This document shows positions 1,069-30,610 of a stretch of DNA of 30,894 nucleotides, piece after piece. The translations under genes and the position numbers were made by a program. The notes beneath the pieces were generated by a model, which was not told where the DNA came from, searched no databases, and was given only the letters and a program-made list of their open reading frames with translations. How positions within the stretch are numbered: the stretch's first letter is position 1; each line of letters opens with the position of its first letter. The DNA comes from Promethearchaeota archaeon (GTDB lineage Archaea > Asgardarchaeota > Hermodarchaeia > Hermodarchaeales > Hermodarchaeaceae), in contig JBHLPH010000021.1 in assembly GCA_048939625.1 (NCBI GenBank), positions 1 to 30,894 on the forward strand, read 5' to 3'.

Positions 1069-1824
1069 TTACAATGTGATGATTTGGGTATCTCGAGGAA
1101 CGATGATCTTTCCAGAATAGGAAGTGCGAATGCTACGTAAGGCATCTCCTAGTTCCTCTAATAACTCTGGGTACAAATGAACTAAGACTAGTGCTTTGAC
1201 TTCTGCTTCCGCGGCAAGCCGTCCCAAGTCCCCGGGGGTTGTGTGTGTTGTGGCAATCTCTTTCATTCGATCGGGTAACGAGCATTCATGAATCAACAGG
1301 TCGGCACCCTTCGCATGTTTGATTACTTCTCGACAGGGTCTGGTATCCCCCGAATAGACAACCCGTTTCCCTTCAGCCTCCATATGGAAACCGTAAGCTT
1401 CGAAATCACCATGATCTACAGGAAAAGCGAGAACCGACCAGTCCTTCACCTTCACCAAGAACCCGGGTTCCACCTTATGATACTTGAGTTTGACTTTACC
1501 CTTCAGGTACGGAAACACATCCGCAAGTGAAAAGGCCATTTTCTGGACCGCTTCAGGTCCATACACATTCAAAGTCTTGTCATATCCCGATAGCCACAAA
1601 CTCTGCAAGAATGCGACCAAATCCGAGACATGATCCACATGCAAATGGCTAATGAACACATGTTCGATTTTAGTGATATCCTCAAGACTACATGAAAGCC
1701 GGTGAAGTACACCCGCACCCATATCAAAGATCAGGGGGTCTCCTGCGGTTTCAATCATTAAACCAGAAGATACACGGTCCGGAGAAAGCAGAGACGCCCC
1801 ACTGCCAAGAATCGTTACTTCCAT
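1069..1824 (-). CDS. MBL-fold metallo-hydrolase, RNase Z/BN-like superfamily
   Basis: N-terminal ILGSG, FDMGAG, HxHxDH motif (SHLHVDH), VDHG, YSGDT, IHEC, HTT, VHLYP. Confidence 0.88.
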   Translation of the reverse strand: MEVTILGSGASLLSPDRVSSGLMIETAGDPLIFDMGAGVLHRLSCSLEDITKIEHVFISHLHVDHVSDLVAFLQSLWLSGYDKTLNVYGPEAVQKMAFSLADVFPYLKGKVKLKYHKVEPGFLVKVKDWSVLAFPVDHGDFEAYGFHMEAEGKRVVYSGDTRPCREVIKHAKGADLLIHECSLPDRMKEIATTHTTPGDLGRLAAEAEVKALVLVHLYPELLEELGDALRSIRTSYSGKIIVPRDTQIITL

Positions 1825-3021: not shown

Positions 3022-3969
3022 CTATTTTGAAAAGAATTGGCTTAGGGACGGACGTTTAGGCACATAGCTCTTATCAATTTGACCATTCTTAAGAAAGTCC
3101 CGAATCAAGCCTGCTTGTTCTACTCGGAAATCTAACCCATTCCGGTCATCAGATTTTGATTCACAAACAATACTGACTTTGTTAATGAAATTCTGTTCCT
3201 GAAGCACGGAGAGAAATAGCTTCCATGGAACATTACTCCCACCATCTAAGGGGGTATGACGAACTTCTCCACGACGATTTGCAAAAATTCCTGAAAGATG
3301 CACGGGGAGGCGCCACCGCGAAAGGTCGATTTCTCGTTCAACTAATTCAAGGCGACGAAGAATACCATCCTCGTTAGTGACATCGCCTCCACGGGCAAAA
3401 TCATGCGCAAAATCCCAGCAAAACAAGCATCCGGCATCACCCGCTGCATGGCAGACCTCATCGAAGCTTCCAAATCCAGCGATTTTACCTGCCACTTCCG
3501 GGGCCGGCACAGCGGAAATGCCTTCATCCTTAACCTTAGTCATGATCTCTTTCAATCGTTGTGTGACGCGATTTTGAACCCTTGCTCCGCCTTGTCGCGA
3601 ACCAGAGTGGAAGGTTACGTGAGTGGCACCGACTAAATCAGCAATATGCAAACACCTGGTCATATGCGCTCGACTCGTCCGAAGTTTCCCTTTCTCTGTT
3701 GTTGTTAATGAGATGATATAGGGCCCATGGATGCTGACGTGAAACTCCTCTAGATAAGATCCGATTATCGCAGCTCGTTCTTTTGATGGATACCCGGGAA
3801 GCCCTCCTCGAGGATTACCAAGAACATTCGATAAACAGAGTAGTTCAGTTGCTCGTAACTTTTCTAATCTTAACCGCGAGGTGACTTTTTCAAGAACAGA
3901 ATCTGAAGTGAAGGTGTTTAGCGGGAAGGCTGCGAGTCCCACGATGGCTTTAGACTTTGATGGCACCAT
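3022..3969 (-). CDS. nfo: endonuclease IV (AP endonuclease family 2, archaeal type)
   Basis: Metal-ligand motifs in the expected order: SIHGPY, TFHSG, PEVAGK, DFAH, VHLSG, EVRH, IVCES. Start placed at ATG 3969; the track extends to TTG 3996. Confidence 0.82.
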   Translation of the reverse strand: MVPSKSKAIVGLAAFPLNTFTSDSVLEKVTSRLRLEKLRATELLCLSNVLGNPRGGLPGYPSKERAAIIGSYLEEFHVSIHGPYIISLTTTEKGKLRTSRAHMTRCLHIADLVGATHVTFHSGSRQGGARVQNRVTQRLKEIMTKVKDEGISAVPAPEVAGKIAGFGSFDEVCHAAGDAGCLFCWDFAHDFARGGDVTNEDGILRRLELVEREIDLSRWRLPVHLSGIFANRRGEVRHTPLDGGSNVPWKLFLSVLQEQNFINKVSIVCESKSDDRNGLDFRVEQAGLIRDFLKNGQIDKSYVPKRPSLSQFFSK

Positions 3970-4065
3970 GTGTTCGCCTGAAAGTGCATTCAACAAAAGT
4001 GCCTTTAAGTGTGCGGAATGTATTCCTCGAAGACCTTTGGGTTGAAATTGGGTTCTGCTTAAATT

Positions 4066-4981: not shown

Positions 4982-5001
4982 CTGAAAAGGTGAGAAGAAA
5001 C

Positions 5002-5640
5002 ATGAGTTCAAGTTCAACATGGGGATACCGGAACCAAAATTTAGTACTTGGTGCACTCGCAGGAAAGGTTACCCATCCTACCGATCTTGCCCGATCAGAA
5101 AAGGCTCTACTCAGCGTTAATGAAGGCACCCTCTATTTTCCGATCTTTTATCAGAACAAGGAAGTAGGCGGGATCTTCATCGGATTTGGGCAAGCAATAA
5201 TTGATGCTATCGCAGAAACCCATCGTGGGGCAGTCGGACAAAGTCATGACTTTAACTGGAACGGAAGTCTTCTTTTACTTAGCGAAGATGGAGAATGGAC
5301 GCCACCTGAAACATCTCATATCAAAGATAAAGAATTAGCTAAATTCCATCTCGAATCATCCAATGATGCATATCAACGGGCCCACGAAATATTCAGTCGC
5401 TTCTTTTCCAATAATCGTAACTGGTTCACTGATACATTTATTCAACGGCATCATGGGTGGGTCGCCACAATCTTGGATATCAACTATGGAAAATGTGGCA
5501 TCATCGCTAGTGAGGATCGGTTGGTCTTCAAGCGAGGCGAGTTAAAAATCGTGCTTAGTGGAAACAAGCTGGTACAAACTGAAGGTCGAAAGAAAGTCTT
5601 TGTCGCTGGAAGAGCTGGAAAAATCGTCCGCTTCGGATGA
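5002..5640 (+). CDS. hypothetical beta-rich protein, co-transcribed with the ArsR gene
   Basis: Starts 20 nt after the ArsR stop, with an AGGTGA SD before ATG 5002 (in frame with the track start 4990). A pyrimidine tract follows. Confidence 0.7.
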   Translation: MSSSSTWGYRNQNLVLGALAGKVTHPTDLARSEKALLSVNEGTLYFPIFYQNKEVGGIFIGFGQAIIDAIAETHRGAVGQSHDFNWNGSLLLLSEDGEWTPPETSHIKDKELAKFHLESSNDAYQRAHEIFSRFFSNNRNWFTDTFIQRHHGWVATILDINYGKCGIIASEDRLVFKRGELKIVLSGNKLVQTEGRKKVFVAGRAGKIVRFG

Positions 5641-5649
5641 ATGTGCGTA

Positions 5650-5688
5650 GGCCCGAAGCGGACCCCTCTTCCTTTTCTTGTTCTTTAA
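5650..5688 (+). terminator. probable terminator (weak hairpin + pyrimidine tract)
   Basis: CCCCTCTTCCTTTTCTTGTTCTTT shortly after the stop at 5640. Confidence 0.45.
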
Positions 5689-5830
5689 TCTCCTTTGAGC
5701 AGAAAGGAAAATGCTAGATACTCCTCGGAGTGGAAGAGCTTTTGAGGAGAAACATCTATGAACAGAAGAAATTCGTTGGCATCTACTGTCCTACAGTGTC
5801 AGCGAATCGGACTTGAAGGAGCACTCCAAG

Positions 5831-8800
5831 ATGGCATCGTTAGATCATGACACTTTGGTGAAAACTTATCGAATCCTCTTCCAAAAAGCCAGAGATAATC
5901 TTGAGGATATTGCTAAGCATTTGACAAAAGAGAAGGGACAAGGCATCCTAGATATCCTAGTTCAAATCGACGAACTCCTCCAACGTATTGAATCTGCATC
6001 TGAACCTTCTCAATTAGAAATCGAAGTAGCTCGCTCAATTGCTCGGGACTTTGACACTATCGCGACCCGGTGGCGCGAGCTGGAACAATACTTTGCAGAC
6101 CAAGTGCATTATGATGATTACGTTTATCGTTCTGATGAGGATAGAGCAGATGCTGCAACCAAAGCGCATGAAATTATTCGTAATCAAGCTCTGGAGGCTC
6201 TCGATGCTGCAGGAACGATGTTTGGCGTCGCAAAAGAATGGCGTCGGGCGGCAAAAAGCTTCAGCACGGTTGTCCAAGCCCGAAAAGCTGAGGATTCATC
6301 TCTCGCAGCGATTCCTGCAATAATACGTGAATATCGCTGCTATGAACAACTTGATGATGCAGCAAATGTCCTCATTATCGGACGAGCAATTCAAAAACTG
6401 CTCAGTAACGTGTCTGATGAGCTTTCCGATCGCGATAAAGCCATGCTCACTGAGGCAATGGAGTTTTTCCGAAAAACAGCAATGACTGCTGTTTCCCACC
6501 GCCAACAAGATCCTGATGTGAATATTCCATTGGCTGCGACTTTCTTGTGGAATGAAGTCGAGGCCTTAGCGCTTATTGCTGGTTCAGACGATGAAAATAC
6601 TTTGAACCGATTTCGTGCTTTAGCTGAATTCTTCGAGCAAGTCGGAAAAGAAGAGCTTACGAAACCAACGCCCTCCATCCAACGTTTCGTTGCTAGTTAT
6701 ATGGAAGGTGCATTAGCTTATCTTCGAATTACACAAGATATCGATGGCTTTTCACGTGAAGAAGCTAAACAAAAAAGCCTCAGTCTAACGCAATATGCCG
6801 CTGATTTCATTCTCACTTTGCTTGAACGGCTTGGCTATCAACGCATAGCCATTGTGGATGATTCCGCAAAAGCAGTTAAAGGACTAATCGCTATCTTTGA
6901 GATGGTAAAACGTGGCTATGAAGGGTCACAAGCATTTCAAGAACTTGCGAATCAAGCAGGTGCAATACTCATCCAAGCCCAACAACGACAAGATCAACCG
7001 GTTATTGATTTAGCCATGGTCTTTCGATGGCTCTGTGAAGGATCTGCTCGCGGACTCTATGTTATTTGTTTGAAACTCATCTCGGATTTGTATCGTGTGG
7101 GAATTGTCAGCGATGTGTTGGATATTGGGTCCAAAGAAGAGCTTCGCCAGCGTGTCTTTGATCTTTTAGTCATTCCCGACCAAGACGAATTATTTGATTT
7201 GTTAATTGATGCTGAAGTCGAATTCGGTGATGTGGTTGACCTTTTCAAAAGTTTAGGTTTATACTGGGTTGCAGCTATCTGCAAACTCAACCAGGGTCAA
7301 CTCCGGCAAAATCTCAGCTATCTTGAAGCTGAAACTGAGACTGTCATTACTCCTGACCAAAGTGAAACTCCAGTTGATGACATTGTCGAACCAGATGCAA
7401 TGCCTTTCTGGGGCGCAGCCCCTTCAAACGATTTTGCTTCCGCTGCAGATCTTTTTTCGAAAGCTTATCGACTCCAACTCAGTGCTAGTGAAAATCGTAT
7501 TGGAGGATCTAATGACACTTGGATACCCTATCGAGATCCAGAAGACATACGGCGACGTGCTGCATACAGCAGTTGGCTTACTGGACTTGCTCACTTGGAG
7601 GAAGGCAATGAGGAAGAAGGGGGAAGAAACCTCTTCCGAGCGAAAAATGCCTACGAGCTACTTAATCGTCACCATGAAGCAATTGCATGCTTGGAAATCT
7701 GGCTCCGAGAACTAGTAACTACAATTAGTGAGGAAGAAGGAAGTGGTGCCCGTCCAACCGGAGAACGGCTCCAAGAGGTTCTCAATGTTTGTGACGAACT
7801 TGTTGGACTTTATTCTATTCGTCGAAGGACCCCTGACACAGTAGCAGATATACTTGATATAGTCGGGTTTCTTCAAACCCATGTGGGAATTGAAAATTGG
7901 ACACTCGCCGTGTTTCTCCGAGCATTAGAATATACTCGTGAAGCCTTAATCCTAGCCCAACGACTCAAGTTACCCGAACCTGCTCTTGAAAAAATGCGAT
8001 TTCTACGCGAAGAACTCAAAGAATTCCTCAATGGCGAGTTTGCTATAGGCATATACCCAGATTTTGCGACAGAAGCAACGATTTACTTCGAAGCTGAAAC
8101 CCCAGTAAAACTAGCCGTCCTCAATATCTCGGATAAGAATTCAACTAATATCTCCATTCGACCCTTGGGGGTTCTTCCCCATATTTCCCCAAGCACAACT
8201 CAACCTTGGAAGTCATCAAGAGACATTTCACAAGTCACAATGAAGAATTTCTACATCGGAACCGATGATGAGGCTTATGAACTCGATGGACAGACGGCTT
8301 ATGGCAAACCTGCTGATGCCTTCGGTCCTCCCCGACCAATTCCTGTAGTTCTCGCTAGTATGGCCTCACCTGATATGGAGCCAGATTCACCCTCCGAACA
8401 AATATCGGGAGAACAACCATGGCTGGGTGTTATGTGGACTGGCGACTATAGTGGAATGCCCTTAGGCATCCTCAAAGGGGCTTCTGAAGAAATAACAAGT
8501 TCAGAGTCTTCTATCTCAACCATTGATGAATTAACTCAAGCCGCTTTCTTCACTGTGTTTACCAAATCCGCCCGTGAAGGAAATATCCTTCCTGGCCAAG
8601 TATTTCCAGTTAGCTTTGGGATATATCAACAAGGAACGAACGACCTCCTCGCCATTCAAACCCTATTTTTCAAGATTGCCAGCCGTCCAAAGATCCTGAA
8701 GGCTGAAACAAATTGGGCACAGGAATTAGGTGACAAGTGGGAAGAAAGCTTTGGAATAACATTTGAGGAAGGAGCCCAGCTTCCCCTTTATGTACCTCGA

Positions 8801-10690
8801 TTCGCTCCCGAATATGAAATCAAAGACTATGTCAATCCCCACACTCTTACTCCTACCATTACGATAGGTTCTGAAGCGGTTGAACTAACAAAATATCTCA
8901 AACATGTGCCCTATCGATTCATCCTCAGATATAATGGAGAACGCGAGTTCCAATCAGGTAATAATTACCAAGTCACCAGTAAAATTTCGCTTGAGATGCC
9001 CGTTCCAGGAACCATCGGCGGTGAATATGAATTCTTACATATCCGAACCCCCCCGCGAATCATGACCGCTGAGGAACTTGCAATGCCTCGTCTCCGGAAC
9101 GGTGTAAACTTCCAAGAACTTTTCTATGGAACTGTCTTCATCGGAGACTCCAACTACGATGGCGAATACTACATCTATCGCCTCTGGGTCTGTTTCGAAC
9201 CAGGCGAAAAAACTCCAGCACCGGGAGCCAACTATCGACAAGGGTGGACCAATCATCGACTAGACATTTTTCTCGATCCGAAAACATGGAATCCAAAACT
9301 CCTCATTACCGATTACTATGTTGAATTTGAAGATGGACGTGGTGAATGGGTCGAAGCTCTATTCACCTTCAAAGCTGCCAGTTCAACTCTCTTCGGCATA
9401 CGTCGCCTTACTGCTGATTTTCATCGCGAAGCACCCCTTGATTCCTACCCTGACTCTTTTGAATCCGAAATTCGATACGCTTTAACTTCACTCGGAGTTG
9501 ATGCTGACACCCCGCTAACAATAACGGGTTTTGCCCTTGGTCAACGTTTAGGATTCATTGAACTCATTCGTGCTTGCTGGGCACGTAACAAACAAGATGG
9601 TCCAGTAATCTTCAAACCACCCCGTGCCCACCTGTTCCGCGACTATTGGAGTCAACGATACGAACATGGTCTCTACCGTGATGACTGGCAAGGTGAATAT
9701 CAAACCAATGAATATGAACTAAAAGGCAACGACCGTAGTGGCGGACAATCCAAATACATTCGCGGTTTCCGACAACGCGCCTTTCCTCATGAAATCGGTA
9801 TCATGGCTCGTGAAAAAGACCGCTGCGACCTCATCATCAACCCACCTGGTGAAGGCGAAACAACAATCATCCGCAACCTCGTCAATCCTCGAAAAATCGA
9901 ACTCTGGACCCGACCCCATGTTAGCTTCAGCCGTCGATTCAATTTCATCGCCAAATACTTCGGACGTCCCCCCAAAATCCACACCGCCAGCCTTTACTTC
10001 TATAGCACTCGTCGAGAACTCAATCCCTATTTCAAAACTCGAATCCGTGGAAAGGACCAATGGATACAATACCCCGAAGCCCGATATTGGACTGGCAAAC
10101 AATGGCAGCCAATTCCTCAAGACTTCCATCCTGCTGCACATCCAGAAAATCTAGCCTATGGCATCAACACTTGGCTGGAAGCCGACGCCTATTGGGTCTA
10201 CCGCTATGTCTGGTTCTGGCCCCTCGAATTTACCTTACCCCTCCCTCATGACGACTGGGAACGCGCCGATATCTGGGTCAACGCCCGAACCGGTAAAATC
10301 GAATGGATTACGAGTGATTACCATTATCGTGAACTGTGGTATCAAAACGCTGTGAAAGCGAGTGGAGTTAATCCGATTATTGACTTTCTGTTTAACTGGA
10401 ATACTCCTGAACCATTGACAGTTAAGGACGGTGCCCCAATACATCAGTCTATTGCAGACTATTTTGTGGAAGGAAAATCCATTGGATTATTTGCAGATCA
10501 ACTCCCATGGATGTTTGCCCGTTACAAACACAGCACTGAACACATGCACAAACTCCATGCCTCCTTCTGGGGTCGTAACAAGGTAAAAATCGTCTATGGC
10601 ACACTCGGAATTCTTATCACTTTACTCATCCTCCTACTCATTCCACAAACTCGGACGATTATCTTTCAACTCCTTGGCTTACTCCCATAA
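5831..10690 (+). CDS. giant (~1620 aa) hypothetical protein: SNAP/TPR-like alpha-solenoid, beta-rich middle, duplicated C-terminal domain, C-terminal TM anchor
   Basis: Uninterrupted 4.86-kb ORF with GAAGGAG SD before ATG 5831. The N-terminal half is helical and Ala/Leu/Glu-rich. It has an internal repeat and a hydrophobic C-terminus IVYGTLGILITLLILLLIP, with no signal peptide. Confidence refers to the ORF; domain calls are inference. Confidence 0.9.
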   Translation: MASLDHDTLVKTYRILFQKARDNLEDIAKHLTKEKGQGILDILVQIDELLQRIESASEPSQLEIEVARSIARDFDTIATRWRELEQYFADQVHYDDYVYRSDEDRADAATKAHEIIRNQALEALDAAGTMFGVAKEWRRAAKSFSTVVQARKAEDSSLAAIPAIIREYRCYEQLDDAANVLIIGRAIQKLLSNVSDELSDRDKAMLTEAMEFFRKTAMTAVSHRQQDPDVNIPLAATFLWNEVEALALIAGSDDENTLNRFRALAEFFEQVGKEELTKPTPSIQRFVASYMEGALAYLRITQDIDGFSREEAKQKSLSLTQYAADFILTLLERLGYQRIAIVDDSAKAVKGLIAIFEMVKRGYEGSQAFQELANQAGAILIQAQQRQDQPVIDLAMVFRWLCEGSARGLYVICLKLISDLYRVGIVSDVLDIGSKEELRQRVFDLLVIPDQDELFDLLIDAEVEFGDVVDLFKSLGLYWVAAICKLNQGQLRQNLSYLEAETETVITPDQSETPVDDIVEPDAMPFWGAAPSNDFASAADLFSKAYRLQLSASENRIGGSNDTWIPYRDPEDIRRRAAYSSWLTGLAHLEEGNEEEGGRNLFRAKNAYELLNRHHEAIACLEIWLRELVTTISEEEGSGARPTGERLQEVLNVCDELVGLYSIRRRTPDTVADILDIVGFLQTHVGIENWTLAVFLRALEYTREALILAQRLKLPEPALEKMRFLREELKEFLNGEFAIGIYPDFATEATIYFEAETPVKLAVLNISDKNSTNISIRPLGVLPHISPSTTQPWKSSRDISQVTMKNFYIGTDDEAYELDGQTAYGKPADAFGPPRPIPVVLASMASPDMEPDSPSEQISGEQPWLGVMWTGDYSGMPLGILKGASEEITSSESSISTIDELTQAAFFTVFTKSAREGNILPGQVFPVSFGIYQQGTNDLLAIQTLFFKIASRPKILKAETNWAQELGDKWEESFGITFEEGAQLPLYVPRFAPEYEIKDYVNPHTLTPTITIGSEAVELTKYLKHVPYRFILRYNGEREFQSGNNYQVTSKISLEMPVPGTIGGEYEFLHIRTPPRIMTAEELAMPRLRNGVNFQELFYGTVFIGDSNYDGEYYIYRLWVCFEPGEKTPAPGANYRQGWTNHRLDIFLDPKTWNPKLLITDYYVEFEDGRGEWVEALFTFKAASSTLFGIRRLTADFHREAPLDSYPDSFESEIRYALTSLGVDADTPLTITGFALGQRLGFIELIRACWARNKQDGPVIFKPPRAHLFRDYWSQRYEHGLYRDDWQGEYQTNEYELKGNDRSGGQSKYIRGFRQRAFPHEIGIMAREKDRCDLIINPPGEGETTIIRNLVNPRKIELWTRPHVSFSRRFNFIAKYFGRPPKIHTASLYFYSTRRELNPYFKTRIRGKDQWIQYPEARYWTGKQWQPIPQDFHPAAHPENLAYGINTWLEADAYWVYRYVWFWPLEFTLPLPHDDWERADIWVNARTGKIEWITSDYHYRELWYQNAVKASGVNPIIDFLFNWNTPEPLTVKDGAPIHQSIADYFVEGKSIGLFADQLPWMFARYKHSTEHMHKLHASFWGRNKVKIVYGTLGILITLLILLLIPQTRTIIFQLLGLLP

Positions 10691-25876: not shown

Positions 25877-28800
25877 ATGGAATTTAACATGAAAAAGGCA
25901 TTGCCTTTTAAAAAGAGAAATCTAGCGTCTCTAGCACTTCTATCAATTCTTGTTTTTTCAATGTTTATCGGCATCTCTGCATTACCATTTCGAGCCATGG
26001 CAACCAGTCTAAGTGAACCAACAATCGCACGTGAGGATTATGATACCCTCTTTCCAGAAATCGGGTCACAATCTTCATCCTCCGAAGAACCAGTGATGAA
26101 CATAGCCTCAAATCTAGATGAATACCTAGCCACTGGCACTATCCCCGATGCTCTTCGTTCAGTAGATGGCGCCCTCGAAGTTTATGCTACCGCCAATCGT
26201 CAAACCGACCTTGTGGGACTAAGCGCTCACATGAAGATTGTCAACGTCATCACCCAAGAAGTTGGCTTAATCATTCAAGGCTTCGTCTCAGATCCTAAAG
26301 CAATATATGCAATTAGTGATTATCCTGGCGTCGGTTTTGTTTGGGGTAATGAATATGCCAACAGGGTGTTGAACGAACGACCAATTGAAGGGCCTTACAC
26401 CGACAATTTCTTTGCTCGTGCAATCATGGGCATTGACCAAGTCGAAGCCGATTTTCCTGCCTATGATGGTACAGGAACCGTAATCGGTATTGTCGACACT
26501 GGTGTTGACTTTGGTGTAACAGATCTTGTTGATGCAATTGCTCTTGATGCCTCCGGTCAGCCAACCAGCTTTGATCCGGGTGGATCAGGAATTGCTATTA
26601 CAACTTATGCTCTTCCAGTAGTGGGTGGGTATCTACTCACTGAGGGCTTAGACTTCCGCATGTTCCGCAACGATGGAGCCTTATGGTGGTCCAACAGCAC
26701 CTACGGGGTCTACACAGAAAACATGTACGTTGGTGGAATCACCAGTATGAGCGGCTTCTACCGCGTTGGTATGTCAGTCCAAATTGCTGAAGACTTATCT
26801 TCACAACGAGCATTCTTTATCTACATTCTTGTCGACTCGACAACTCCTTTTGTCTATGACACATTATATGTTGACTTTGAATCCTCATGGGCTGTAACAG
26901 CCGACTATGCTGGAATTTCAACCAGTGTAGCAGCTGATTGGGACTTCACTAATAATGCTCCCCACATGTTCGACTCGAATCCAATTCTTGCCGAAGATTT
27001 TGACGGTGATGGAAACAATGACTACAGCATGGGCAGCCTCTCAAACACCTTCGACCTAACCGGTCAAATCACCGGCGACCTCATCTCCGGTATTGATGCC
27101 CAAGGTCGTGGATTCGCCTTCATGTACGACAATGGTGGTCACGGAACTAGCTGTGCAGGTACTGCCGCTGGACGTGGAATCACCGAATTCGACGTGTATG
27201 GGAATGGCACCTTGTATACAGTGCCTGGTGTTGCACCTGGTGCAAAGATCATGGCATTGAAGACATTCACCATCGCTGACGATCTCTGGACATGGTATTG
27301 GGGCTGTGGATACCGACCAACTGGATATCCATACAGCTTCTTCGAAAACTGGACTTACGTCGGTACAGACAAAGCTGATGTTCTCAGTAACAGTTGGGGT
27401 TGGTCCTCATTCCACGAAGGAACACGATATGATATGGTCAACAGCTACGACCTATACAGCATGACCATGGATTATCTGACCTATGAATCCGATACCCTCT
27501 TCTGTGTCTCAACCGGCAATACTGGTCCAGGTTACGGAACAGTCAGTCGACCAGACTCAATCTTTGCCCTAATGGTTGGAGCAAGCACTACCTCCCACAT
27601 CTGGCAAGGCTTCTACAGCAACTACTCCCAAGGCTACGATACTGTGGCAGACTTTACCAGTGTAGGTCCTACACCACAAGGCTACTTAGGAATTGACATT
27701 TTAGCCGTTGGTGCTTATGCCTTCGACATTGCACCACTTCACATCGGTGATGGAAGTGAATCCTGGACCACCTTCGGTGGTACCAGTCAAGCCTGTCCCT
27801 TTGCTGCAGGAATTGCAGCAATCGTGACCCAAGCTGGCTCTCCCTCAGCCGATTCAACACGTGCAATGCTCATGAACACCGCAGATGACCTCGGTTATGA
27901 CGTCTACCGCCAAGGCGCCGGACGTATCAATGCCTACAAGGCAATTCACATGGCCTTCGGTAACGCTACAGATGGTACCGATCCACTCCCCGCAATCGCC
28001 ACCTACGAAAGTTGGAACGCCCAATACTGGGGTGATAAAGGCGATCCATGGCGGGGCTGGTATATGAACATGTACTACAGTGGTGACGACTTTGGTGAGT
28101 ACTTCTATTTCACTCAGCTGTATCACATGAGCTGGTATGATCCTTACGGCCTTGTTGATGGAGCCGTCTTCCCTGGTCCCATTTATCGTGGTGACTCCTA
28201 TGCGTTCAACGTTTCAACTAGTACCGCTGACATGACAGGTGTCGACAGTCTGGCTGCTTATACCTATCAGCAAGCAGGCTCAGCTTCTGCGAATCTCAGG
28301 TCCACTTCTACCTATACCACCTGGCGACTTGCAGACCACTTCTCTGTTGCCGAACTTGCATCTATGCTAAGCTCAGAATATATGGTAATTCACCTTACCT
28401 ATCCACAGTCGAACCTAGATGCGCTCTACGATCTTTCCGGTCAAGGCAACTATGTGTTCCTCCATGACTGGTATGACTTCAACGGTAACGGAATCATCGA
28501 CTTCGAAACAGCGACAACCGCTGGTGAAGTTCGACGAGTCTCCTCAGACACAGCCTATTCCAACAGCCACACCATTTGCCTGGGTAACCCAGCAAGCCAC
28601 TTCCTCTGGGACCCAACGATCTACTACCGCGATATCGGTGTCGAACTGTTCCTTTGGCGAGAACTCAACGTCAATGTAACCATCACTTGGTATAACAGCG
28701 CTCCATGGACCTGGTTCACCACCAGCCAATACATGGCTCCTGACCCAGGATATCCAATGATGTGGAACGTCAGCATAGACGTTCCTGCTGACGCTATGCC

Positions 28801-30610
28801 TGGTGCCTATGAAGGCTATCTTGCAGCCGTTAATGGTACGGGTGTAACTCACATGCCAATCAGCTTCCGAGTTGACGCGATCATGGATGCTCCAGGTGCG
28901 GCTGGTGCCGTCTCATGGGGTGGAGCTCAAAACCTGCCCTACGACAACGGTGCTACCTATGGAAACATCCAATATGGTTACCGACCACAAGTAGGTGACT
29001 GGCGATTCTGGTTCGTCGATGCGAATCGCTGGAATGCGACACACGAGTACGAATCACCACCCAGCTACCTCATGGTGAACGTTACCTGGATGGATCCTGA
29101 TACACGACTCGACGTCATGCTGTACTACTCATCCTATGGTTACTTCATGGATGAGACAGACTCTGCCTGGACGAATGCTCAGTGGCAAGGAACATCAACT
29201 GGTCCAACATCACAGGTCATTCTCCTCGATGTCTCTCGTCCATATGGACCAGCTTATGGATGGGATTGGACCTGGTTCTCACGCGGATACTTCGGCATTG
29301 CAGTACGCACCAGCACGTTTGGTGCCTCAACCGGTGGTGTCGAGGACATCTATGTCACCTGTGCCTATGGCATCGATAACCATGCAGGCGGTGACGACGG
29401 TGTCTCCACGCCTTGGGCTGGAACTCCATTTACATGGGGTCAGCCTACTGCCTGGCTGAATGGATCCGACACCATAACTACCATGGCGCCGTTGATGGAC
29501 AACAGCAACTGGACAGGTCCAGCAGCGACCTTCCACGTTAACTGGTCAGCACTTAGCATTCCTGAATTCCCAGGAATTGGTATCGTCTCAACATCACTTG
29601 ACCTTCTCTCCACGGTTTCCCACCAAAACTACGGTACAATCGTAGAACCGGTCGTACCGGGTTGGAACCCCGACTTGAACCCACGAGAAGACTATGACTA
29701 CGTGGATCTTCTTGCTGGTCAAACAGTGACAGTGACAGTTGACTTTGGTACTTGGGATGCTGAGGAAGGCGGGTCGTTGACGCATGCCGGTGACATCGAC
29801 GTATTCGTGTGGGCACCGGGTGTCGCACACACCTATGCCAACAGTCTCACAGGAGGGACGACCGCAACTGGTGCGAATCCTGAAGTAGGAACCTTTACCG
29901 CTCCAGTCTCGGGAACCTATACCATCGGATTGGACTACTATGACGGTCCAGTACCCATGGCCTGGACGACTGATGTCTATGCCTTCCAAGCTAGCGGTGT
30001 TACAGCAGCAGGGCTCTCTGTTGATCTTGACACTTCGATGACTAATACCAACGCCCGATACGACGTTCGTGCCAGCTTTAGCACGGAAACCACCTTGGAC
30101 CTTGATCCGAGCTTCAACTCTGTCTTCCTTTCTAACCTCGGAGTGGAGAACTTCTTCGCACCCTCTATCGATTCACTTGATCCTGATGGAGGCGAAACCC
30201 TCGGTCCTGAACCGTTCGTCATCTCATGGACGGCTTCTGATCCGAACGCAGCCCCTGGTAGTTCACCATCTCTCGGTGAAACCATCGGGTTCTCCGTTGA
30301 AGTCAGCAATGACTCTGGTGTTACCTGGAAGGTAGTCACATATGGTACGACGTTAAACAGCATCACCTATGATCCCAATAGTGCCTACTATGGTCTAGGC
30401 GCAAGCGTGACGTGGCTGGTCCGTGTGAACTGCACCGATGGTATGTTCACCGTAAGCCGCACATCGGCTGCGACCTTCATTGTAGAACCGGAGATCTTCA
30501 TCCCAGCGCCACCGTACGAGCTCTATGTTGTTATCGCTGTGATTGTCATTGTGATCATTATTTTGTTGGTCACATGTCTACTCAAGCGACGACAGACAGC
30601 TGCCAAGTAA
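25877..30610 (+). CDS. large secreted, C-terminally membrane-anchored S8 subtilase (pyrolysin-like) with PPC-like domain
   Basis: Signal peptide. Triad IVDTG (D, 26495), GHGTSCAG (H, 27140), GGTSQACP (S, 27785); oxyanion STGN; QGAGRINA. PPC-like GDIDVFVWAP...ANPE...APVSGTYTIGL. TM LYVVIAVIVIVIIILLVTCLL followed by KRR. Start may be 25889. Confidence 0.93.
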   Translation: MEFNMKKALPFKKRNLASLALLSILVFSMFIGISALPFRAMATSLSEPTIAREDYDTLFPEIGSQSSSSEEPVMNIASNLDEYLATGTIPDALRSVDGALEVYATANRQTDLVGLSAHMKIVNVITQEVGLIIQGFVSDPKAIYAISDYPGVGFVWGNEYANRVLNERPIEGPYTDNFFARAIMGIDQVEADFPAYDGTGTVIGIVDTGVDFGVTDLVDAIALDASGQPTSFDPGGSGIAITTYALPVVGGYLLTEGLDFRMFRNDGALWWSNSTYGVYTENMYVGGITSMSGFYRVGMSVQIAEDLSSQRAFFIYILVDSTTPFVYDTLYVDFESSWAVTADYAGISTSVAADWDFTNNAPHMFDSNPILAEDFDGDGNNDYSMGSLSNTFDLTGQITGDLISGIDAQGRGFAFMYDNGGHGTSCAGTAAGRGITEFDVYGNGTLYTVPGVAPGAKIMALKTFTIADDLWTWYWGCGYRPTGYPYSFFENWTYVGTDKADVLSNSWGWSSFHEGTRYDMVNSYDLYSMTMDYLTYESDTLFCVSTGNTGPGYGTVSRPDSIFALMVGASTTSHIWQGFYSNYSQGYDTVADFTSVGPTPQGYLGIDILAVGAYAFDIAPLHIGDGSESWTTFGGTSQACPFAAGIAAIVTQAGSPSADSTRAMLMNTADDLGYDVYRQGAGRINAYKAIHMAFGNATDGTDPLPAIATYESWNAQYWGDKGDPWRGWYMNMYYSGDDFGEYFYFTQLYHMSWYDPYGLVDGAVFPGPIYRGDSYAFNVSTSTADMTGVDSLAAYTYQQAGSASANLRSTSTYTTWRLADHFSVAELASMLSSEYMVIHLTYPQSNLDALYDLSGQGNYVFLHDWYDFNGNGIIDFETATTAGEVRRVSSDTAYSNSHTICLGNPASHFLWDPTIYYRDIGVELFLWRELNVNVTITWYNSAPWTWFTTSQYMAPDPGYPMMWNVSIDVPADAMPGAYEGYLAAVNGTGVTHMPISFRVDAIMDAPGAAGAVSWGGAQNLPYDNGATYGNIQYGYRPQVGDWRFWFVDANRWNATHEYESPPSYLMVNVTWMDPDTRLDVMLYYSSYGYFMDETDSAWTNAQWQGTSTGPTSQVILLDVSRPYGPAYGWDWTWFSRGYFGIAVRTSTFGASTGGVEDIYVTCAYGIDNHAGGDDGVSTPWAGTPFTWGQPTAWLNGSDTITTMAPLMDNSNWTGPAATFHVNWSALSIPEFPGIGIVSTSLDLLSTVSHQNYGTIVEPVVPGWNPDLNPREDYDYVDLLAGQTVTVTVDFGTWDAEEGGSLTHAGDIDVFVWAPGVAHTYANSLTGGTTATGANPEVGTFTAPVSGTYTIGLDYYDGPVPMAWTTDVYAFQASGVTAAGLSVDLDTSMTNTNARYDVRASFSTETTLDLDPSFNSVFLSNLGVENFFAPSIDSLDPDGGETLGPEPFVISWTASDPNAAPGSSPSLGETIGFSVEVSNDSGVTWKVVTYGTTLNSITYDPNSAYYGLGASVTWLVRVNCTDGMFTVSRTSAATFIVEPEIFIPAPPYELYVVIAVIVIVIIILLVTCLLKRRQTAAK

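Follow-up and report, generated by a model that had tools for sequence, protein, structure and literature searches.

We analysed a 30,894-nucleotide stretch of DNA from a Promethearchaeota archaeon (GenBank assembly GCA_048939625.1, contig JBHLPH010000021.1), referred to below as the window, and in it a single gene on the + strand that encodes a protein of 1619 residues (the giant). The initial annotation had described the product as a cytoplasm-facing, tail-anchored protein with a helical-repeat half, a beta-rich middle and two aromatic domains, and had proposed it as a trafficking or membrane-remodelling scaffold. The coordinates and composition that it gave were correct in our open reading frame (ORF) scan and hydropathy scan. 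The gene and its predicted parts are as follows.

5831..10690, + strand: giant gene, complete, 1619 residues plus stop, single ORF
5815..5821, + strand: Shine-Dalgarno-like GAAGGAG, read from the sequence, 9 nt 5' of ATG 5831
5831..6238, + strand: N-terminal four-helix bundle (predicted), residues 1-136
6239..8035, + strand: predicted TPR-like alpha-solenoid, residues 137-735, ~21 helices, disordered loop at 504-527
8036..8680, + strand: predicted immunoglobulin (Ig)-like beta-sandwich, residues 736-950, split by a proline-rich low-confidence insertion (~780-873)
8681..9580, + strand: further predicted beta-rich domain(s), residues 951-1250, AlphaFold2 predicted local distance difference test score (pLDDT) 70-85
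9617..9850, + strand: module piece 1, residues 1263-1340, invariant HLFRDYWS.R.EHG.YR.DW, from invariant columns and weak recurrent hidden Markov model (HMM) matches
9851..10129, + strand: basic aromatic soluble segment, residues 1341-1433, sitting where relatives carry 2-6 transmembrane (TM) helices
10130..10465, + strand: DWER core domain, residues 1434-1545, YWVYRYVWFWPLE ... PHDDWERADIWVNARTGKIEWITSDYHYRELWY ... NWNTPEP, from hmmsearch and alignment
10466..10582, + strand: predicted juxtamembrane helices, residues 1546-1584, LPWMFARYKHSTEH.HKLH, ending in the basic patch GRNKVK, conserved
10583..10651, + strand: predicted single TM helix (tail anchor), residues 1585-1607, Kyte-Doolittle maximum 2.54, kept in 18/18 homologues
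10652..10690, + strand: short predicted extracytoplasmic tail, residues 1608-1619 plus stop, poorly conserved

The ORF scan of the window placed the long open frame at 5813-10690. The frame measures 1642 codons from stop to stop, only ~22 of them upstream of ATG 5831, and the sole upstream start codon in frame is TTG 5813, 6 codons before that ATG. We took ATG 5831 as the start rather than TTG 5813 because of the GAAGGAG ahead of it. Given the length of the stop-to-stop frame, an N-terminal extension bearing a signal peptide is impossible. The N-terminus was hydrophilic in 18/18 aligned homologues and hydrophobic in none, and the earlier description of a protein of ~1620 residues with no signal peptide therefore held. 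A scan for sigma-70 promoters and intrinsic terminators, a type of scan ill-suited to archaea, gave nothing above shuffles.

The structure of the N-terminal half was modelled by AlphaFold2 from an 18-sequence alignment. Residues 1-745 gave a pLDDT of 86.8 and a predicted template modelling score of 0.79, with 26 helices and 76 % helix. The TPR-like segment quoted in the initial annotation corresponds to residues ~577-611 (nt ~7559-7663) and was modelled as a confident helix-turn-helix (H570-591 and H594-610). The helices stacked as antiparallel pairs forming a superhelix, as expected of a TPR-like alpha-solenoid. Foldseek searches of this half against the PDB returned only TPR-type solenoids (Ski3, IFT-A TPR subunits, Ctr9, Naa15, LGN, APC/C and designed toroids), with E-values from 2.5e-5 to 1e-3, probabilities near 1 and TM-scores of only 0.1-0.2. 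The confident all-helical model and these matches bear out the proposal that the helical repeats form an alpha-solenoid. In Pfam, residues 118-223 matched SNAP at E 0.0067, but the 16.4 bits fell short of the cut-off of 25. The safe conclusion from the model is a predicted TPR-like solenoid behind a four-helix bundle, to which no specific family can be put by name.

Beta strands were predicted from residue 737 onward, and the proline content reached 8-10 per 100 residues between positions 701 and 900. The AlphaFold2 model of the C-terminal half (735-1619) had a pLDDT of 51.6 overall and was usable for 735-780 and 874-1250, where it showed beta-sandwiches. The proline- and beta-rich middle said to follow the helical half was recovered by both measures. 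Foldseek of this model against the PDB returned nothing at E<=0.001, and its shape neighbours in the ESM Atlas were S-layer, CARDB and NPCBM-type archaeal Ig folds with TM values of 0.15-0.38. The shape searches (Foldseek pdb, VIA-wide and ESM Atlas) probed only the first Ig-like domain, and their output was generic sandwiches. The models confirm predicted beta domains in the middle, without pointing specifically to an adaptin or COP appendage.

The claim of two homologous aromatic domains was the weakest element of the initial annotation. It is plausible in that residues ~1111-1165 look like a degenerate copy of the DWER core: BLASTP of 1040-1260 against 1340-1585 gave 31 % identity over 52 residues (E 0.014), and profile-profile comparison of the first copy with the core (hhalign) gave E 3e-4 and a probability of 39 % over 45 columns. 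However, the first copy is without the invariant D and E.

Conservation was higher in the C-terminal half than in the N-terminal half, and residues 1351-1400 and 1451-1500 reached ~0.9 column identity among the 18 homologues. Exhaustive searching of 1.84 billion representatives by hmmsearch, with a profile of the C-half, returned 64 proteins, 50 of them at E<=1e-10. Beyond the full-length family, the significant matches all fell in residues ~1434-1545, with E-values down to 1e-26 and with one exception, a weak repeat match (P0081, E 4e-5). Re-scoring showed that residues 1265-1340 ('FRDYWSxR...') match weakly but recurrently on the N-terminal side of the same relatives. The module motif lies in two pieces, 'FRDYWSxR' ... 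'PHxDWER ... SDYHYRELW', and eight positions (D1475, E1477, R1478, W1482, A1485, D1496, H1498 and R1500) are invariant across the 63-sequence family alignment. The family has no Pfam or NCBIfam model. No significant hit came from Pfam, NCBIfam or PDB sequences when they were searched with the whole protein, profiles of both halves and the domain profile, and ESM Atlas feature searches with the giant's module and a 358-aa relative (P0057) gave scores <=0.89, which are leads only.

These relatives are polytopic proteins of 188-984 residues, with hydrophobic spans between the two module pieces. The spans were estimated from hydropathy as a TM hairpin in minimal forms and four to six helices in larger ones, that is, in even numbers (2, 4, 6). 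The flanks of the hairpin are K/R-rich, its loops are short and uncharged, and the FRDYWS piece often stands at the extreme N-terminus without a signal peptide. We therefore predict that both module pieces are cytoplasmic (N-in/C-in). In the giant, the segment 1341-1433 at the place of these spans has 19 K+R per 100 residues, a column identity of 0.92 over residues 1351-1400, a predicted amphipathic helix at ~1364-1377 and a strand, ASLYFYS, reminiscent of the T(I/V)YLYNG that follows the hairpin of relatives. The whole module has an isoelectric point of 9.2, 17 % aromatic residues and zero N-glycosylation sequons. To judge from these alignments, the evolutionarily conserved core of the protein is the C-terminal, predicted membrane-proximal module, which the initial annotation missed.

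The full-length protein has a narrow distribution. Word-seeded searching of 5.8 billion proteins turned up 22 relatives with identities of 51-91 %, all unnamed or 'hypothetical' and all from metagenome-assembled genomes (MAGs) labelled Promethearchaeota or 'Thorarchaeota'. Complete relatives have 1617-1632 residues, and three shorter records among the 22 have 942-955. GTDB representative contigs carrying the giant are titled Candidatus Hermodarchaeota, including Hermodarchaeum yapensis, a lineage described in PMC8163825. The solenoid profile matched 16/18 other genomes of the window's own GTDB family and 0/381 other Asgard genomes. The protein is thus confined to Asgard archaea, as the initial annotation had supposed, and to one GTDB family (Hermodarchaeota or 'Thorarchaeota' in the records). 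Because the solenoid and the full architecture occur only in this family, the giant is a family-level, lineage-specific fusion and not an ancestral, eukaryote-like coat. No title in the literature on tail-anchored proteins of Asgard archaea or Thorarchaeota, judged by titles and abstract openings, pointed to it.

The DWER profile reached further. It matched 14/18 genomes in the own family, gave strong matches in five other Asgard families and weak ones in one more; the strong other-family matches were one open frame per genome, of ~860-1000 residues apart from one truncated frame of 401. Word-seeded and pattern searches extended the DWER family beyond those to many Bathyarchaeia (~610 aa), Jordarchaeales, Atabeyarchaeia, Borrarchaeum, Gemmatimonadota, Eisenbacteria and Verrucomicrobiae. 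Nearly every carrier genome has one copy of the gene, and a six-frame profile search of the own genome found a single DWER copy (E 8.5e-37 at 10145-10453). The Candidatus Borrarchaeum contig (L021 3273-11783) has its 984-aa homologue amid DZR/DUF7575, EAP30 (ESCRT-II-like) and opposite-strand Band_7 genes. A GDPD glycerophosphodiester phosphodiesterase gene lies 58 bp downstream of this homologue on the same strand, with more phosphoesterase genes nearby.

The best 19-residue Kyte-Doolittle window of the giant was 1587-1605, and the runner-up reached only 1.46. All 18 of the aligned homologues (18/18) showed R/K-x-K/R-V-K, then ~20 hydrophobic residues, then a short tail. Sequon density was 0.43 per 100 residues in the giant, against 0.38-0.58 in three cytoplasmic enzymes of the window and 1.0 in a signal-peptide-bearing S8 protease and an OppC permease with an ectodomain of ~400 residues. 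The extracellular protein of this comparison is a 1577-aa S8 subtilase at 25877-30610 of the window, with a clear signal peptide and a PPC domain. Candidate insertion factors in the own genome are an ArsA/Get3-family ATPase (319.9 bits) and an EMC3/TMCO1-like insertase (56.6 bits). The giant accordingly has the marks of the tail-anchor class, namely a lone TM helix near the C-terminus, no signal peptide, and candidate insertion machinery encoded in the genome.

A tail-anchored, cytoplasm-facing topology is favoured because a signal peptide is lacking, the basic patch precedes the anchor, sequon density is low and Get3/EMC3-type genes are present. The protein is best read as tail-anchored, with ~1580 residues predicted to face the cytoplasm. 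The initial annotation had proposed this topology, and it stands on the only strong hydrophobic helix (1585-1607) following GRNKVK and on the missing signal peptide. Three findings had been named as fatal to the earlier proposal (no solenoid in the N-half, an extracellular protein, or widespread bacterial full-length homologues), and we observed none of them.

On balance, the giant is probably a lineage-specific tail-anchored membrane scaffold or adaptor around an uncharacterised membrane-surface module, and not a homologue of vesicle coats. Its ancestor would have been a polytopic membrane protein that displayed the DWER module towards the cytoplasm. Along the Hermodarchaeota lineage, a soluble basic segment and a tail anchor would have taken the place of the membrane-embedded parts, and ~1250 residues of protein-interaction scaffold would have been added ahead of the module. 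The invariant cluster of D, E, R, D, H and R may bind a cation and/or a lipid head group, or catalyse a reaction on one, at the inner membrane surface, and the TPR and Ig region may recruit or organise soluble partners at the inner membrane face.

Several points weigh against this scaffold reading. The topology is predicted from sequence rules, and Ig-like domains and proline-rich linkers are also typical of archaeal surface proteins. AlphaFold2 left residues 1251-1578 unmodelled (pLDDT 25-45), and the evidence for their fold and for any cation, lipid or catalytic role is confined to conserved residues and context. No common theme emerged from the gene neighbourhoods of five distant relatives. 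Finally, the MAG prefix ACFFCO carries both the giant (P0022) and a 545-aa polytopic paralogue (P0051), so that a simple replacement of the polytopic form by the giant is not the whole story.

The search for precursors of eukaryotic membrane trafficking draws on Asgard genomes, where large proteins of the 'solenoid plus beta' kind are tempting candidates. The giant shows that this layout can arise recently within one family, by fusion onto a prokaryotic membrane-protein module, and it should not be counted as a eukaryotic signature protein. The analysis also defines a widespread domain family that lacks a Pfam or NCBIfam model and has clear invariant polar residues and a predicted place at the cytoplasmic face of the membrane.

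An alternative is that the DWER module is the catalytic domain of a membrane-associated hydrolase or transferase acting on lipids or head groups, and that the solenoid and Ig domains only regulate or localise it. This would agree with the eight invariant residues in 63 diverse members, six of which are polar, with the single-copy state of the gene in nearly all carrier genomes, with the position of the module always in or beside the membrane, and with the GDPD and phosphoesterase genes next to the Borrarchaeum homologue. However, that neighbourhood is not conserved in other relatives, and the Pfam, NCBIfam and PDB sequence searches showed no similarity to known enzyme families. The nearest candidate relatives are not known enzymes either: NPP1 is a toxin that binds lipids in a cation-dependent manner, and no molecular function is known for Vps62. 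We consider the enzyme explanation unlikely, although less so than the coat and cell-surface ones below.

The possible link to NPP1 and Vps62 arises from the PHDDWE of the giant. Among the 18 full-length homologues D1475, W1476, E1477 and E1466 are invariant; in the 63-member family D1475 and E1477 are invariant and E1466 nearly so, while the His of the motif varies (H, L, E or K). In NLPs, D93 and the heptapeptide GHRHDWE are reported to be among the residues critical for cytotoxicity, and the heptapeptide to lie in a cation pocket needed for sphingolipid binding (PMC7031652; bioRxiv 10.1101/2025.11.10.687460). Collinear blocks, four in all, match between DWER and NPP1/NLP (PF05630) and Vps62 (PF06101); they comprise YW.Y in an aromatic strand, one acidic residue, H.(G/D)DWE, S..H and a late H. 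The spacing from the acidic residue to DWE is 9 residues in the DWER family and 11 in NLPs. Whereas NLPs are described as secreted, the DWER module is predicted to be cytoplasmic.

The PF05630 and PF06101 HMMs gave no match to the giant at E<=1 and none at E<=10 in a six-frame search of the own genome, and the DWER domain profile found no NLP chains in the PDB. For a profile comparison, Vps62-family segments were taken from Asgard genomes; these segments also touch NPP1. With hhalign, DWER aligned to them in the expected register, collinear over 93-106 columns, with E 0.0069 and a probability of 5.6 %; enriched profiles gave E 0.0043 and 7.9 %. The observed score was reached by 2/200 column shuffles, and part of it comes from the motif that had prompted the comparison. 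ESM feature searches with two family members each listed a cluster with 20 % Vps62-carrying members at a score of 0.85. A distant relationship of the DWER module to NPP1/Vps62 is suggestive but unproven. If true, it would link an intracellular membrane module of prokaryotes with toxins that bind lipids and with a sorting factor of yeast.

A larger reading built on this relationship would make DWER a hitherto overlooked, cytoplasm-facing NPP1/Vps62 branch with thousands of archaeal and bacterial members and cation-mediated binding of lipid head groups. The Hermodarchaeota would then have turned it into a tail-anchored giant whose TPR/Ig arm organises partners, possibly small GTPases, as an independent coat- or tether-like scaffold. 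We give this combination only a slim chance.

In the archaeal 'Vps62-related' proteins (PF06101, ~570 aa), a GDWE domain and five TM helices follow a hydrophobic N-terminus that resembles a signal peptide. Soluble forms of 237 residues also occur, the protein collection holds >5000 relatives, and some segments match NPP1. They were surveyed in the Asgard genomes G122, G124, G126, G293, G105 and others (L092-L100). Their N-terminus implies a location opposite to that predicted for the DWER module.

Upstream of the giant the genes are, in order, a DEAD/MZB helicase, thioredoxin, an MBL hydrolase, longin-Arf, AP_endonuc_2 (opposite strand), an ArsR-type helix-turn-helix (HTH) protein and a 212-aa protein. 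This order was kept down to 51 % identity, and the downstream genes were variable. The following neighbours matter for the interpretation.

1980-2831: longin-Arf gene, 283 residues, Arf/Roc-type GTPase domain at residues 110-242 behind an N-terminal domain of ~110 residues
4268-4981: ArsR-type HTH protein with a long charged N-terminal region
4990-5640: 212-216-aa protein with no Pfam or NCBIfam family

The HTH and 212-aa genes are probably one operon, with 8 bp between them here and a 4-bp overlap in a homologous locus (L007). An 11-bp perfect inverted repeat (GTCCGCTTCGG / CCGAAGCGGAC) at 5628-5690 of the window straddles the stop codon of the 212-aa gene, and a C/T-rich tract comes after it. 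This may be a terminator parting the pair from the giant gene, which would form a separate transcription unit. The 212-aa family was found in 99/400 Asgard genomes. As a specific partner of the giant, the 212-aa protein (P0026) was rejected: proteins of its family are present even in Asgard families that have neither the giant nor DWER (in one 3/3, in another many). The 212-aa orthologue in a genome of the same genus (G103:C52:193-837) has one in-frame TGA. Homologues of the MBL-fold hydrolase (window 1069-1824) in sister loci carry a precomputed Anti-Pycsar Apyc1 (PF23023) match. Adjacency to LysE is common to an 894-aa polytopic relative and the Hermodarchaeota loci, which hints at positional orthology.

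The longin-Arf gene bears on a further explanation, namely that the giant is a divergent homologue or analogue of adaptin, COPI, TRAPP or BBSome subunits, maybe controlled by longin-Arf. The initial annotation had pointed to the adaptin/COP/TRAPP layout, and what stands of this is the order of a solenoid and then beta domains, here with a membrane anchor. In each homologous locus examined that extends far enough, down to 51 % identity, the longin-Arf gene keeps its place 3 kb upstream, its protein is 71-96 % identical in four homologous loci, always in synteny with the giant, and a small Arf/Ras GTPase lies 1.5 kb from the 894-aa relative. However, the synteny spans ~8 genes in close relatives and an opposite-strand gene (3022-3996) intervenes, so that, as first annotated, longin-Arf is not co-operonic; the upstream order is close-relative synteny and not specific evidence. 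Small GTPases are numerous in Asgard genomes, and the proximity is therefore likely due to chance. Complex prediction of the solenoid (1-712) with longin-Arf gave an interaction score (ipSAE) of 0.00 in both runs, which without controls is evidence neither way.

The coat step itself found no support. The Pfam scan of the giant at E<=1 returned only the marginal SNAP match and Imm17, with no Adaptin_N, COP, TRAPP or SNARE. The repeats are of the TPR type and not of the HEAT/ARM type of adaptins, and the architecture occurs in one Asgard family and is absent from the rest of the phylum. Resemblance of the solenoid and Ig regions to TRAPPC8/9/10/11 and adaptin/COP was generic and within noise: the structural scores lay within the range of unrelated common folds and did not separate from generic Ig and TPR rows. 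We judge a proto-coat or tether to be improbable.

That the giant crosses the membrane by an unrecognised export route and is held on the outside by its C-terminal anchor is very improbable, for although Ig-like sandwiches with a proline-rich linker, the S-layer/CARDB/NPCBM neighbours (at their low TM values) and the signal-peptide- or anchor-like N-terminus that would place the GDWE domain of the possibly related Vps62-related proteins outside would suit it, there is no signal peptide in 18/18 homologues and no upstream room for one, the basic patch N-terminal of the TM helix obeys the positive-inside rule, sequons are as sparse as in the cytoplasmic enzymes and absent from the module, the N-terminal 735-residue TPR solenoid is typical of cytoplasmic proteins, and relatives begin with the FRDYWS piece at the extreme N-terminus, with no signal peptide before it.

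The preferred reading of a lineage-specific tail-anchored scaffold can be set against known systems. Like SNAREs and Get3/TRC40 clients, the giant lacks a signal peptide, is predicted to hold a large N-terminal domain in the cytoplasm and has one TM helix, placed within 35 residues of the C-terminus. However, the SNARE heptad motif is absent beside the anchor of the giant, where the 120 preceding residues are the beta-rich DWER core and two short helices, and its 1619 residues are far above SNARE sizes. The TPR scaffolds (Ski3, Ctr9, Naa15, IFT-A TPR subunits, LGN/Pins and Sec17/alpha-SNAP) have no sequence-family match to the giant, and its predicted superhelix differs from theirs in having a four-helix bundle in front and in being fused to beta domains and a tail anchor. 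Adaptin/COPI and TRAPP large subunits share the order of fold classes and belong at a membrane, where the giant too is predicted to sit; they use HEAT/ARM repeats and peripheral recruitment, whereas the giant has TPR-type repeats, its own TM anchor, no sequence similarity to them and no identified platform subdomain. The polytopic DWER proteins (Bathyarchaeia ~610 aa, Borrarchaeum 984 aa, Jordarchaeales, Atabeyarchaeia and Gemmatimonadota ~500 aa) differ in lacking the solenoid, the Ig domains and the tail anchor, and in carrying TM helices between the pieces, 2-6 by estimate, often with further helices in front. They share the two-piece module with the giant at 35-57 % identity (E 1e-10 to 1e-27), with FRDYWSxR ... 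DWER ... SDYHYRELW ... NFHTP in common.

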